Assembly (NCBI GenBank): GCA_051648645.1
Contig: JBOFFP010000004.1
Span: 158,891-222,890 of the forward strand
Source of the DNA: Candidatus Rhabdochlamydia sp.
GTDB taxonomy: Bacteria > Chlamydiota > Chlamydiia > Chlamydiales > Rhabdochlamydiaceae
Length of the DNA: 64,000 nucleotides
Direction: 5' to 3'
Each line of letters opens with the position of its first letter. Positions within the stretch are counted from its first letter, which is position 1. A program made the position numbers and the translations under genes. This document shows, in pieces, positions 61,326 to 64,000 of the stretch. The notes beneath the pieces were generated by a model, which saw only the letters and a list, made by a program, of their open reading frames with translations, was not told the origin of the DNA and did not search any database.

Positions 61326-61353
61326 AAAAATCCCTAGTTAGGGCAAACTAGGG
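61326..61353 (-). terminator. Terminator of the degenerate 5S unit
   Basis: A-tract plus CCCTAGTT...AACTAGGG, same family as the hairpins at 62464 and 63829. Confidence 0.7.
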
Positions 61354-61364
61354 TGATAGTAAAA

Positions 61365-61445
61365 CTAAATGGCCTCTCAGAATAGTACACCAACCATGCA
61401 GAACTCATTAGATCGTAATCGGATATTTCCTCTTTTACTACTTAA
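61365..61445 (-). pseudogene. Heavily decayed 5S rRNA copy
   Basis: Residual ATAGTAC, ATGCAGAACT and TATTTCCTCTT in 5S order, between the same terminator and the same TTTTGTCAGATTA spacer as the intact copies. Confidence 0.65.
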
Positions 61446-61461
61446 TTTTTTGTCAGATTAT

Positions 61462-62358
61462 TTAAGCATAAAGTTTTTTAACATCAAAAAATTCTTCACC
61501 ACAAAACTCTTTAGGAATCCCTAATACACCATTAAGCTCTGGAAGAAGCTCTCTAAAAATGTCTTTCCCTATTTCCTGATCTTTCCAATGATTTATGTAA
61601 TTATAAGCTGCACTTCCACCAATTACAACAGCAGTGAATGTAATAAAAGCAATATTAAATGATTTAGAAACTAGAAACAAACAAGGTCTTATTAACTCAT
61701 CTATGCGTTGAGCAGCAAAAAGAATTGAAGGTGCTCCCCAATTACATGTCCTCTGATAGTTAGTTATTTTATCTAAGCGTCTTTGATCTTTCAGCATTTG
61801 TATCAATACTACTTTTGATAAAGACCCCAACCCTTTAGTATCTCCATGTTTTGTAATAATCGTTTCTATTTTTTTTACTGTTTGCAAAGAGGAAATCTTT
61901 TTTGATGAATCCAAAAAGTCATCAAAAATAACATTACAATCTTCTCTTTTTTGTAAATTTATTGCTGAAAAAGGATCTTTCAAGTTTTTGGGAGAAGCAT
62001 ATTCCGAAAAAACAGACTCAAAAACTTTCCTTGTTTTTGCCAATCTATCATTTGCTTCATCCTTTAATGAATCAAGTTTGAACATTGTATAAAGCACTGG
62101 AACAGCAATAGAAGGCAGAACAATCATAGAACTAGAAACTACATACTTTAACGCAATGCGTGTGATTGCAGCACAAGCAACAAGGGCAATAATAATAATC
62201 TTGTTATCAGAAATTGTTGTTGTCCAAGATTTTTGTTCATTTTTAAGCTGAATATTACAATTTTTCATACAGCTCTGAAGATTTTTAAATTCATTTTCTT
62301 TAAACATAAATCTCAAATCAGGATCAAAATTATTAATTGGAAACATATTCAATCTCAT
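61462..62358 (-). CDS. Inc-like membrane protein (paralogue of 62644..63594)
   Basis: Two bilobed hydrophobic domains; colinear paralogue. Confidence 0.75.
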   Translation of the reverse strand: MRLNMFPINNFDPDLRFMFKENEFKNLQSCMKNCNIQLKNEQKSWTTTISDNKIIIIALVACAAITRIALKYVVSSSMIVLPSIAVPVLYTMFKLDSLKDEANDRLAKTRKVFESVFSEYASPKNLKDPFSAINLQKREDCNVIFDDFLDSSKKISSLQTVKKIETIITKHGDTKGLGSLSKVVLIQMLKDQRRLDKITNYQRTCNWGAPSILFAAQRIDELIRPCLFLVSKSFNIAFITFTAVVIGGSAAYNYINHWKDQEIGKDIFRELLPELNGVLGIPKEFCGEEFFDVKKLYA

Positions 62359-62463
62359 TTAATTTAAAAATTCCTTAAACGATACAGAAATGAAATTAAA
62401 ATATCCATAATTATTGTAAATGTAAATTCTAAATTTAAGAAAAGATAAGACAAAAAATAGCAG

Positions 62464-62495
62464 AAAAAAACCCTAGCTAGACTAGCTAACTAGGG
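62464..62495 (-). terminator. Intrinsic terminator after 5S
   Basis: CCCTAG...CTAGGG with a U7 tract on the minus strand. Confidence 0.8.
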
Positions 62496-62507
62496 CGATA
62501 GAAAAAA

Positions 62508-62622
62508 TTTGGCGGCGACCTACTCTCCCATACTCTTGAGTATAGTACCATCGGCGATGAAGAGCTTGACTTCTAAAGTTCGGGATGGGATCAGGTATTT
62601 CCTCTTCTCTATTGCCACCAAG
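62508..62622 (-). rRNA. rrf: 5S rRNA (variant copy)
   Basis: Reverse complement of the 5S consensus (GGCGACCTACTCTCCC...AGTACCATCGGC...GTTCGGGATGGGATCAGGT); differs from the 63873 copy by CTAAAG vs CTGAG and a terminal C>T. Confidence 0.92.
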
Positions 62623-62643
62623 ACTAAATTTTTGTCAGATTAC

Positions 62644-63594
62644 TTAACCATGAAGTTCTTCAAGAAGAAATTCTTTAGCACAAAGTTCTTTAGGAATCTC
62701 TAATACATCATTAAGCTCTGGAAGAAGATCTCTAAAAGTATCTTTCCCTATTTCCTGGTCTTTATAATGATTTATACAGTTATTCACTACTCTTCTACCA
62801 ATTAAAACAGCCGTGATTGTAATCAAAGCAATATTAAGTGATTTAGAAACTAGACACAAATAAGGGCTTATTAACTCATCTATGCCTTGAGCAGCAAAAA
62901 GAATCGGAGCTACTCCCATATTACATGTACTGTGATAGCTAGCTATTTTGTCTAGGCGTCTTTGATCTTTTACCATTTGCATAAACACCACTTTTGATAA
63001 AGACCCCAAGCCTTTGTTTTCGCCATGCTTTGCAAGCATCTCATCCAATACTTTTTCTGTCTCGCGAGGGGAAATCATTCTTGGTGAATTCATGGATTTT
63101 TTTATAAAAAGGGCTATATCATTAAATTTTTCTAGAAAAAGGTATGTGTTCTCAAATTTTTGTTCATCTTCTTCCCATTGCTCTTCATTTAAAAATTCTT
63201 TCGAATTTATCGGGAAAGCGTATTTCCAAAGAACACTTATAAAAACCTTCTGTGTTTTTGTTAATGTATCGCTTGCTTCTTTTTCTAATGAATAAAGTTT
63301 AGATGTTCCATAAAATATCGGAGCAATAGTAAAAGGCAAAACAATTATGGATCTAGAAAGTACATAATTTACTGCAATATTTACTGCAATGGATATGATT
63401 GCAGAGCAAGCAACAAGAGAAATAATGGCAACTTTATTATCAGAAATTATTGCTGTCCAAGATCTTTGCTCATTTTTAAGCTGAATATTACAATGTTTTA
63501 TACAGCTCTGAAGATTTTTTAACTCATCTTCTTTAAATAGGGATCTTAAATTGGGATCAAAAGAACTGCTAAGTAAACTCATATTTAGTCTCAT
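62644..63594 (-). CDS. Inc-like membrane protein (paralogue of 61462..62358)
   Basis: Shared MRLNM, FDP.LR, NLQSC, KGLGSLSKVV, KDQEIGKD; bilobed hydrophobic domains. Confidence 0.75.
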   Translation of the reverse strand: MRLNMSLLSSSFDPNLRSLFKEDELKNLQSCIKHCNIQLKNEQRSWTAIISDNKVAIISLVACSAIISIAVNIAVNYVLSRSIIVLPFTIAPIFYGTSKLYSLEKEASDTLTKTQKVFISVLWKYAFPINSKEFLNEEQWEEDEQKFENTYLFLEKFNDIALFIKKSMNSPRMISPRETEKVLDEMLAKHGENKGLGSLSKVVFMQMVKDQRRLDKIASYHSTCNMGVAPILFAAQGIDELISPYLCLVSKSLNIALITITAVLIGRRVVNNCINHYKDQEIGKDTFRDLLPELNDVLEIPKELCAKEFLLEELHG

Positions 63595-63828
63595 TTAATT
63601 TAAATTTTATTAAAATTATATGAAAATAAAGATAAAAATCAATATTGAATAATTACTTTAAAATTAACATTGAGCTTAATTAATTAAAAACAAGGAAGAT
63701 AATAATAGAATAATTATTTTTATGTTAAAAAATATTGAAACACTAAAGAGAGCAACTTATTCGGATAGGAAATTTCTTAAAGTTAATTGCTTATTTTTAT
63801 TAAAATATTTTCTATTATTTTCGGGCAT

Positions 63829-63860
63829 AAAAAAACCCTAGTTAGACTAGCCAACTAGGG
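63829..63860 (-). terminator. Intrinsic terminator after 5S
   Basis: CCCTAGTT...AACTAGGG plus U tract on the minus strand. Confidence 0.8.
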
Positions 63861-63872
63861 CGATAGAAAAAA

Positions 63873-63986
63873 CTTGGCGGCGACCTACTCTCCCATACTC
63901 TTGAGTATAGTACCATCGGCGATGAAGAGCTTGACTTCTGAGTTCGGGATGGGATCAGGTATTTCCTCTTCTCTATTGCCACCAAG
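63873..63986 (-). rRNA. rrf: 5S rRNA
   Basis: Full 5S consensus with paired ends CTTGGTGGC / GCCGCCAAG and CCGAAC loop. Confidence 0.97.
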
Positions 63987-64000
63987 ACTAAATTTTTGTC

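Follow-up and report, generated by a model that had tools for sequence, protein, structure and literature searches.

In a genome of Candidatus Rhabdochlamydia, a membrane-protein gene appears to have been copied in tandem together with a 5S rRNA gene. The alignments identify the repeat unit as the last 19 nt of a 23S-5S spacer, a 5S gene, an rRNA operon (rrn) terminator, a promoter region and a membrane-protein gene, and they point to an origin by tandem duplication. The locus is probably the 3' flank of one rRNA operon, in a genome that probably has two. On the favoured reading, which is likely though well short of certain, the array would have arisen by tandem segmental duplication; passenger copies of the 5S gene would have been homogenised and then left to decay, the terminators retained, and genes exchanged by means of the shared modules. 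In kind, the duplication is a common tandem one that carries an unusual passenger.

The window, that is, the whole stretch of DNA analysed, is 64,000 nt long, and the array lies at its end. The order read there by the original prediction was recovered: on the minus strand, an intact 5S gene is followed by ORF1, a second 5S, ORF2 and a 5S relic, with the same hairpin terminator after each 5S. The features of the locus are as follows.

63987..64000, minus strand: final 14 nt of the 23S-5S spacer, the same as the spacer end (…AATCTGACAAAAATTTAGT) of relatives that have a 23S gene there.
63872..63986, minus strand: 5S rRNA gene copy 1, intact and rrn-proximal (Rfam RF00001, 101.2 bits, full length).
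63797..63861, minus strand: predicted rrn intrinsic terminator 1 with a conserved post-terminator "F" box (terminator scan; rrn profile from other genomes, E=1.6e-14).
62644..63594, minus strand: ORF1, 316 aa, a Rhabdochlamydia-specific, predicted all-helical membrane protein of clade II of its family (ORF, tree, predicted structure).
62623..62643, minus strand: duplication junction of 2 nt plus 19 nt from the end of the 23S-5S spacer (aligned to the spacers of relatives).
62507..62622, minus strand: 5S copy 2, unlinked to 23S, nearly intact and apparently in early decay (Rfam, 86.0 bits).
62470..62496, minus strand: predicted terminator 2, with two substitutions, the hairpin kept and no F box (terminator profile E=9.6e-8, profile positions 1-53 only).
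61462..62358, minus strand: ORF2, 298 aa, a paralogue of ORF1 (ORF, tree, dN/dS comparison).
61326..61461, minus strand: spacer remnant, decayed 5S copy 3, predicted terminator 3 (61353-61332) and F box (nhmmer E=5.8e-5).
60290..61204, minus strand: ORF3, 304 aa, a membrane protein whose family sits upstream of ORF4 in relatives.
59130..60122, minus strand: ORF4, 330 aa, a distant paralogue of the ORF1 family and the conserved gene that follows the second rrn operon.
58082..59023, plus strand: gene for an EamA-family transporter, which anchors the synteny of the second rrn-type locus (Pfam EamA, 6.5e-37).

Contig C4 terminates at window position 64000, 14 nt upstream of 5S copy 1. Its end falls within a 140-nt exact repeat that is also the start of contig C2 and spans the 14 upstream nt, 5S copy 1 and 11 nt downstream; thus one rrn operon, of probably two, should have its 3' end here. 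The arrangement accounts for the breaks of such assemblies at this site. No 23S gene is present in the whole assembly, a metagenome assembly of 12 contigs from which 16S is also absent. Among the 5S loci retrieved from the genus, five of six have a 23S gene about 130 nt upstream, and G002 and G007 both carry a pair of rrn operons, arranged as direct repeats. In contigs of a close relative, the spacer runs into a 23S-5S spacer at about twice single-copy depth. Homology and these contigs make it probable that 5S copy 1 is linked to a 23S gene. The EamA gene is 94% identical to the gene adjoining ORF4 in G002, and a paralogue of ORF3 sits in C2, directly after the 5S of that contig.

The original prediction proposed a repeat unit of membrane-protein gene, 5S and rrn terminator, in which each ORF stops about 20 nt before a 5S copy within a shared spacer. 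Both ORFs do have one and the same junction: the stop codon, TAA, is followed by 2 nt and then by AATCTGACAAAAA..., and the distance from the ORF1 stop to the second 5S is 21 nt. In relatives, the spacer before 5S ends in ...gagag(g)AATCTGACAAAAATTTAGT. Because this end is the same, both ORF stops are fused to exactly the final 19 nt of the 23S-5S spacer. In a close relative, contigs from two runs extend from the 3' end of ORF1 through the spacer into a 5S, of which they cover the first 12-20 nt; the ORF1 of this relative shows 27 differences in 761 nt. The two units stand head-to-tail and align over the spacer, the 5S, the terminator and the ORF, as well as over the 50 nt that precede its start codon. 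The region from the terminator to the ORF start is otherwise unalignable between units 1 and 2.

A terminator scan of 59000-64000 picked up three terminator-like hairpins and no more, one per 5S copy and each on the minus strand (63861-63835, 62496-62470 and 61353-61332), so all three are retained as had been claimed. This number is no excess over shuffled sequences (mean 2.3, sd 2.0); the significance of the terminators lies in homology and position, not in count. The three predicted terminators consist of hairpins of 8-11 pairs with T runs. In terminator 2, the two substitutions exchange Watson-Crick and wobble pairs and leave the hairpin intact, and the C2b copy is altered on both sides of its stem (CCTTAAG...CTTAAGG). 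A profile of trailer, terminator and F box, built from other genomes only, was searched on the 1.67-Mb assembly. It found five sites (E 1.6e-14 to 0.0023; next match 0.076), three of which come after ORF1, ORF2 and ORFc2. The terminator 3/F part matches the terminator profile of other genomes at E=5.1e-6. A promoter scan was at chance level, with 29 sites against 23.0 +/- 4.6 in shuffles.

The 5S copies had been read as a series from intact through slightly mutated to ruined, and Rfam scores, alignments and a profile match to the relic all agree with this. Membership in the 5S family was defined as a full-length match to the Rfam RF00001 covariance model above its gathering score of 38 bits. 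Copies 1 and 2 both exceed this cut-off and span model positions 1-120. For annotators, an above-threshold 5S match of this kind may not mean a working 5S gene.

The modules of copies 1 and 2 differ at 5 of 172 aligned positions. These include the two terminator substitutions; inside the middle 5S, their alignment recovers the 1-nt insertion and two substitutions noted earlier. The insertion and a C>T change sit in GAAC-TCAGAAG, a motif that 26 of the 28 other 5S rows keep without alteration; none of the other rows shows either change. A 3' G>A disrupts the closing pair of helix I, which covaries in relatives. A functional 5S would keep its invariant and covarying positions; copy 1 does so, and copy 2 does not. 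Since two of the three changes in copy 2 affect such positions, this copy seems to be starting to decay.

Copy 3 is a real 5S relic and lies outside the 5S family as defined. It is matched at 61326-61459 by a profile of spacer, 5S and terminator (E=5.8e-5; 1.67-Mb assembly plus 8 loci), and the Rfam 5S model does not detect it at E<=10. When it is aligned with copy 1, 108 of 158 columns match, and there are deletions of 10, 11 and 18 nt.

ORF1 and ORF2 are 55% identical by tblastn and 58% identical in a MAFFT alignment. The same amino acid is encoded at 173 of 297 aligned codons, with a dN of 0.26 and a dS of 0.37. In the tree, ORF1 clusters with P0011 and P0009 (93/98), both from other MAGs, and ORF2 clusters with P0018 (91/91), from another MAG; these three proteins are the closest homologues. 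The homologues of the ORF1 family amount to 21 proteins in 5.8 billion, unnamed or "hypothetical" and confined to one genus. The family matches no Pfam family at its cut-off and no PDB fold at E<=0.001. The predicted model of ORF1 is all-helical, with a mean pLDDT of 74.

Genes for chlamydial inclusion membrane (Inc) proteins are known to expand in tandem. The criterion applied for Inc proteins was a hydrophobic domain with two lobes, some 40-60 residues long. By hydropathy, such a segment (Kyte-Doolittle mean above 1.6) is found at residues 48-91 of ORF1 and 47-95 of ORF2, and the ORF1 model places two low-confidence helices over it, H47-77 and H85-126. On hydropathy, the two may be labelled putative Inc-like proteins. 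Like Inc genes, they are fast-evolving, lineage-specific tandem paralogues with the hydrophobic segment near the N-terminus, in a genome that encodes a type III secretion-type export gate (FHIPEP, SctV/FlhA-type, at C3:46493-48481). They differ in that Pfam and a PDB fold search showed no sequence or fold similarity to any described Inc family. The literature searched reports no case of Inc genes co-duplicated with a 5S gene.

The ORF duplication is old, as judged by its dS and by the partners of each ORF in other MAGs, yet the 5S modules are nearly the same. Copy 2 must therefore have been either homogenised or selected. The decay gradient originally proposed stands as a three-stage series, but not as a simple order of age, since an old ORF duplication is combined with a middle module that is 97% identical. 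Probably, copy 2 was homogenised by gene conversion and is now beginning to decay. Outside the 5S, the modules differ at 2 positions in 57 nt, against 10 of 60 fourfold-degenerate sites in the ORFs, a modest contrast. Against gene conversion, purifying selection on a functional copy 2 and on its processing and termination signals could also preserve the similarity.

The copies of an rRNA operon within one genome undergo concerted evolution through gene conversion. Here, likewise, the 5S, trailer and terminator of copy 1, copy 2 and C2 are near-identical, and they differ between species. Unlike in ordinary rrn concerted evolution, the copy that was probably converted lies outside an rrn operon, behind a protein gene, and is seemingly leaving the conversion pool.

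The favoured reading can be laid out as a sequence of steps. A tandem segmental duplication would have copied the spacer end (19 nt), the 5S, the trailer, the rrn terminator, the promoter region and the membrane-protein gene as one block. The extra 5S copies would be redundant passengers, at first maintained by gene conversion as rrn copies are, later decaying and finally deleted. The terminators would be retained because each one ends the transcript of the gene upstream, and ORF1 transcripts would read through into 5S copy 2. Different stages of this process may still be visible: copy 2 would be recently homogenised with decay starting, copy 3 a wreck, and the sites in relatives and after ORFc2 reduced to the terminator. 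The 5S/terminator modules offer about 180 bp of homology, through which the array probably relocated to the other rrn locus in this genome and which probably also lies behind changes in unit number between strains. With rrn operons in direct repeat, as in G002 and G007, a simple reciprocal exchange deletes the intervening DNA, so a double crossover or conversion must be assumed. If these steps are right, one array displays the course of an accidental rRNA-gene duplicate from homogenised copy to pseudogene to deletion, with its terminator adopted by a protein-coding gene.

Evidence for a change of locus is provided by the relatives. The ORF1 family adjoins ispG in G002, G006, G003, G008 and metagenome contig L095, and it sits downstream of a 5S in G002, G006 and L093. 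In the present genome, ispG is found in C2 after a 5S and ORFc2, and ORF1 and ORF2 lie upstream of ORF3, ORF4 and EamA. In G002, G007 and G006, it is the other rrn operon that has this last flank. ORFc2, now beside ispG, is trailed by an rrn terminator relic without a 5S. By parsimony over four genomes of the genus and one metagenome contig, the ispG position is probably ancestral. The relocation of the array and the relic after ORFc2 would fit exchange through the 5S modules.

Tandem copy number differs among related genomes: there is one copy in G002 and G006, two in G003, one plus a pseudogene in G008, and two here. In G003, tandem copies A and B are parted by an rrn-type terminator and F box, without a 5S. 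The metagenome twin of G003 has two tandem copies with only a terminator between them, and G008 has the same type of gene-terminator-gene junction in decayed form. A 5S next to such paralogues is thus no requirement; since the tandem genes of relatives retain only the terminator, the 5S can be dispensed with. A close relative has a terminator of the copy-1 type joined to the region upstream of ORF3. In none of four runs were positions 61294-62515, where ORF2 and the relic lie, covered at >=90% identity, which cannot count as absence. A low-depth contig (X6) that joins 62182 to 63443 was set aside as a family member from another organism.

The same observations bear on another model, a possible if doubtful one, in which the 5S/terminator module would serve, within a cassette system, as the working handle by which putative Inc-like genes are multiplied, removed and traded between two rrn loci. 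The original prediction had suggested that the 5S might act as a recombination handle, and the change of locus and the terminator relic after ORFc2, the replacement gene beside ispG, support this indirectly. Variable tandem copy number and the junction upstream of ORF3 in the close relative, where nothing at least 90% identical to ORF2 was covered, point the same way, even if missing cover is no proof of absence. So does the distant paralogy of the genes downstream of both rrn operons (the ORF1 and ORF4 families). However, ordinary homologous recombination between any repeats predicts all of this equally, the modules decay and are deleted, the inter-locus moves amount to a single putative one, and no sign of selection for a handle is evident.

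In a further model, the middle 5S would be a selected extra gene. It would derive from the 3' part of the ORF1 mRNA or from rrn read-through, with excision helped by the retained 19-nt leader and the trailer, and would serve as a variant 5S or as a structured, stabilising 3' UTR. Copy 2 covers the full model at 86 bits, little below the weakest-scoring genuine 5S genes of the order (87.3 bits). The 21-nt gap behind ORF1 holds neither a terminator nor room for a promoter, a strong predicted terminator follows, the leader, trailer and terminator are conserved alongside the 5S, and one change in copy 2, from G-C to G-U, preserves pairing. Nevertheless, this model is improbable, given the insertion and C>T in a near-constant motif, the broken covarying pair, and the decay (copy 3) or deletion (in G003, in G008 and after ORFc2) of sister copies, which makes a 5S behind an ORF dispensable. 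The close relative also has no separate contig with the copy 2 variants, a weak point since contigs drop variants.

The two models can be combined, so that the rrn 3' module of Rhabdochlamydia is a portable homology-and-termination cassette by which fast-evolving putative inclusion-membrane genes multiply, disappear and change places between the two rRNA loci, and the 5S behind each ORF is co-transcribed and processed to a variant 5S or a protective 3' end. This is quite improbable; if true, it would couple the expression of host-interaction genes to ribosomal RNA. Another chlamydial family offers a related hint: behind the rrn operons of G027 stand at least six diverged 5S-like repeats that have an 11-nt insertion in common.

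An assembly artefact, in which a repeat-induced misjoin or strain chimera made the ORF-5S-ORF order, might be suspected of a 12-contig metagenome assembly without 16S and 23S whose array touches a contig end inside a repeat, but it is hardly credible: the private variants of copy 2, less than 141 nt apart, join two unique stretches, the ORF1 3' end and the upstream region of ORF2, a related strain yielded, in two runs, independent contigs that span the end of ORF1, the spacer and the 5S start, and the order gene, rrn terminator, gene recurs in G003, G008 and metagenome contigs. A mobile element or integron-like system, with the 5S as site-specific attachment site and membrane-protein genes as cassettes, has an equally negligible chance: the genes do sit exactly at the 3' flank of 5S, and two short peptides near related loci in G001 and G003 presumably resemble transposase fragments, but these peptides have no significant NCBIfam match, none of the eight ORFs of at least 130 aa in window positions 46000-59100 matches an integrase or transposase family, plain rrn-spacer homology accounts for the junctions, and the gene family is distributed vertically within its one genus.

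On the favoured reading of tandem duplication with passenger 5S copies, the array is a variation on known phenomena, namely orphan 5S genes and concerted evolution. Passages of a report on Helicobacter pylori 26695 describe a plasticity zone 2 flanked by orphan 5S rDNA, and 5S/23S loci associated with variable genes (PMC1245399). For Francisella, passages of another report list three operons plus an orphan 5S fragment (PMC3479022). As far as those passages describe them, these cases share with the present one a 5S that is detached from 23S beside strain-variable genes, and fragmentary relics that persist. Unlike them, the Rhabdochlamydia 5S belongs to a head-to-tail unit with one gene family and is fused 21 nt after a stop codon; the array also holds three stages of decay, and no horizontal transfer is implied. 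The literature searched, which left most subscription journals outside its scope, held no description of the array in Rhabdochlamydia. The rrn 3' flank would be a site where an arthropod-associated chlamydial genus diversifies a private membrane-protein family.

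The array occupies the final 2.7 kb of the window, at the end of contig C4 of a 1.67 Mb assembly (12 contigs, 35.5% G+C). Its main features are as follows.

63872-63986, minus strand: 5S copy 1, full-length Rfam match, 101.2 bits
62644-63594, minus strand: ORF1, 316 aa
62507-62622, minus strand: 5S copy 2, full-length Rfam match, 86.0 bits
61462-62358, minus strand: ORF2, 298 aa

ORF1 and ORF2 are paralogues with 55-58% protein identity. The same hairpin terminator is located 3' of each 5S. ORF2 is followed by a 5S relic (copy 3) and then by a third such hairpin. The Rfam model does not detect the relic, which is matched at E=5.8e-5 by a spacer, 5S and terminator profile searched against the whole assembly and eight loci. 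Aligned to copy 1, it agrees in 108 of 158 columns and shows three deletions. Rfam, ORF calls, a terminator scan and the relic profile show that the original prediction had the coordinates and order of these elements right. The locus is real and informative; its processes are known ones, and it is no new kind of system.

In related genomes, the spacer between 23S and 5S ends ...gagag(g)AATCTGACAAAAATTTAGT, immediately 5' of the 5S. ORF1 and ORF2 have like 3' ends: TAA, 2 nt, and then exactly the 19-nt spacer end AATCTGACAAAAATTTAGT. This junction of stop codon and spacer arose once and was inherited by both units, which bears out a proposed repeat unit of membrane-protein gene, 5S and rRNA operon (rrn) terminator. 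The unit has four parts.

19-nt spacer end and 5S
12-nt trailer and terminator
short conserved "F" box following the T run
promoter region and ORF

The F box follows copies 1 and 3 and also occurs in C2, another contig of the assembly, but has been lost after copy 2. The array is a tandem segmental duplication, with its left breakpoint within the 23S-5S spacer and its right one just past the stop codon.

C4 ends 14 nt upstream of copy 1, and the first 140 nt of C2 are identical to its end. The contig break is thus repeat-induced, and at least two such 5S ends exist. No 23S is found in the assembly. Six 5S loci were fetched from genomes of the same genus, Candidatus Rhabdochlamydia, and in five of them a 23S precedes the 5S by about 130 nt. 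Each of the nearly complete genomes G002 and G007 carries two rrn operons. In a close relative (27 differences in 761 nt of ORF1), contigs continue from the spacer into the 23S-5S spacer at about twice single-copy depth. This layout and these contigs make it most likely that an rrn operon has its regular end at copy 1.

The duplication is old. ORF1 and ORF2 are separated by a dN of 0.26 and a dS of 0.37 (NG86), and from terminator to start codon the DNA of units 1 and 2 is unalignable save for the last 50 nt. A tree of 23 family members, which excludes the 148-aa fragment P0021, places ORF1 with P0011 and P0009 (support 93/98) and ORF2 with P0018 (91/91). Since these three proteins all come from other assemblies, the duplication predates at least one speciation.

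The 5S modules of the two units differ at 5 of 172 positions, with only two of these in the 57 nt outside the 5S; trailer and hairpin loops clearly differ between species. A predicted gradient of 5S decay therefore stands as a series of intact, mutated and ruined copies, but not as a simple age series, given so few module differences against that dS. A copy left unattended for so long would resemble copy 3. On these comparisons, either selection or gene conversion from the rrn copies must have preserved the similarity of copy 2. That rRNA genes evolve in concert is well established.

Two of the three internal changes in copy 2 speak against full selection. An inserted U and a C>U both fall within GAAC-UCAGAAG. 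Of 28 other 5S rows from the order, 26 keep this motif intact, and none has the insertion or the C>U; one of the two that deviate is a diverged repeat from the genome G027, which represents another family. In helix I, whose closing pair covaries among relatives, a 3' G>A disrupts that pair. Because the changes hit a conserved motif and a covarying pair, recent homogenisation followed by the onset of decay seems somewhat more probable than selection, and both may co-occur.

Between the ORF1 stop and copy 2 there is no terminator and no promoter-sized room, so the ORF1 transcript should continue through copy 2 to terminator 2. A promoter scan gave nothing above chance.

In G003, of the same genus, and near-identical metagenome contigs, two tandem family members are separated by nothing but an rrn-type terminator and F box, with the first member's stop codon within the hairpin stem. 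G008 carries a decayed form of this junction behind a pseudogene. There the 5S was either deleted or never part of that duplication; the 5S can be done without, the terminator cannot. A profile of trailer, terminator and F box, built solely from the rrn copies of other genomes, finds five sites in this genome.

after copy 1: E 1.6e-14
at the C2 5S: E 3.7e-14
after copy 2: E 9.6e-8
after copy 3: E 5.1e-6
C2:1463-1526, directly after the stop of ORFc2 (the gene following the C2 5S): E 0.0023

The next match has E 0.076. Three protein genes, ORF1, ORF2 and ORFc2, therefore each have a recycled rrn terminator at the 3' end.

In relatives, the ORF1 family is found directly upstream of ispG (G002, G006, G003, G008 and metagenome contig L095) and downstream of a 5S (G002, G006 and metagenome contig L093). 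Downstream of their other rrn operon, the order is (ORFc2-like)-ORF3-ORF4-EamA or ORF4-EamA. The arrangement here is crossed: C2 reads 5S-ORFc2-terminator relic-ispG, and C4 reads 5S-ORF1-5S-ORF2-relic-ORF3-ORF4-EamA. A model of exchange at internal 5S modules predicted an rrn-module relic after ORFc2, which was then found. In G002 and G007 the rrn operons are arranged as direct repeats, so that a double crossover or conversion has to be assumed; this would have its left boundary in the rrn operon and its right boundary in an internal 5S module. For the close relative, two runs yielded contigs that span the ORF1 3' end, spacer and start of a 5S, and two runs yielded contigs that link the DNA upstream of ORF3 to a copy-1-type terminator. 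A one-unit array would account for this, short of proof.

At E<=0.001, a search of 5.8 billion proteins gives the ORF1 family 21 members, every one unnamed or "hypothetical" and from Rhabdochlamydia-like sources. Querying 41 related genomes with ORF1 finds the family in 6, each belonging to the same genus. It matches no Pfam family, and the predicted ORF1 model, all-helical with mean pLDDT 74, has no PDB match. A two-lobed hydrophobic stretch spans residues about 48-95, and a second hydrophobic region lies close to the C-terminus. Since the genome also encodes a type III-type export gate, the two-lobed stretch makes "Inc-like" a reasonable putative label. The family profile also has a weak match to the ORF4 family, over its C-terminal half (E 1e-6 to 1e-8 in each genome); ORF4 is the conserved gene 3' of the other rrn operon. 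This suggests that an ancient rrn duplication carried its downstream gene along.

ORF3 and ORF4 (window 59130-61204) and ORFc2 (C2:300-1445) are additional genus-specific membrane proteins arrayed after rrn operons. ORF3 and ORFc2 share 35-42% identity, and ORF4 has a second paralogue in contig C3 near 313400-313700. Nucleotide identity between ORF1 and ORF2 (62700-63500 against 61500-62300) is uneven, at 85-90% near both ends and 34-60% in the middle, where they differ in length by 33 codons; overall dN/dS is about 0.7. The pattern suggests a fast-evolving central region.

Searches of the literature on Rhabdochlamydia 5S, orphan 5S and rrn-linked tandem duplication returned no description of this array. 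Precedents exist for orphan 5S genes and 5S fragments (PMC1245399; PMC3479022, on Francisella), and in H. pylori orphan 5S flank variable regions (PMC1245399).

In G027, four diverged 5S-like repeats lie downstream of a true 5S of 93.8 bits (L096 = G027:C7, 581-1864). Three score 23.6-26.5 bits with Rfam, below the cut-off, and only nhmmer detects the fourth. The repeats share 71-77% identity with the true 5S and 80-95% with each other, have an 11-nt insertion in common, and have no ORF of at least 100 aa between them. A second contig begins with two more copies (L097 = G027:C3, 109-572). Amplification of 5S modules after rrn operons thus recurs in the order.

The sole 5S found in the same-genus genome G001 has no preceding 23S (L053 = G001:C46, 3203-3607). 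About 45 nt of spacer remain, and the 5S differs by several substitutions from those in the rest of the genus. Upstream is a 42-aa HTH-like ORF fragment, possibly transposase-like, an assignment unconfirmed by NCBIfam. At window 46607-48598 (plus strand), a 663-aa protein contains 13 DUF4116 repeats (Pfam 6.4e-187); repeat proteins resembling it by eye lie downstream of the G001 5S and of one G007 rrn operon. A 232-aa ORF at 49736-50434 (minus strand) shows weak similarity to a phage capsid family, PF25209 (3e-7; 31.4 bits, cut-off 27).
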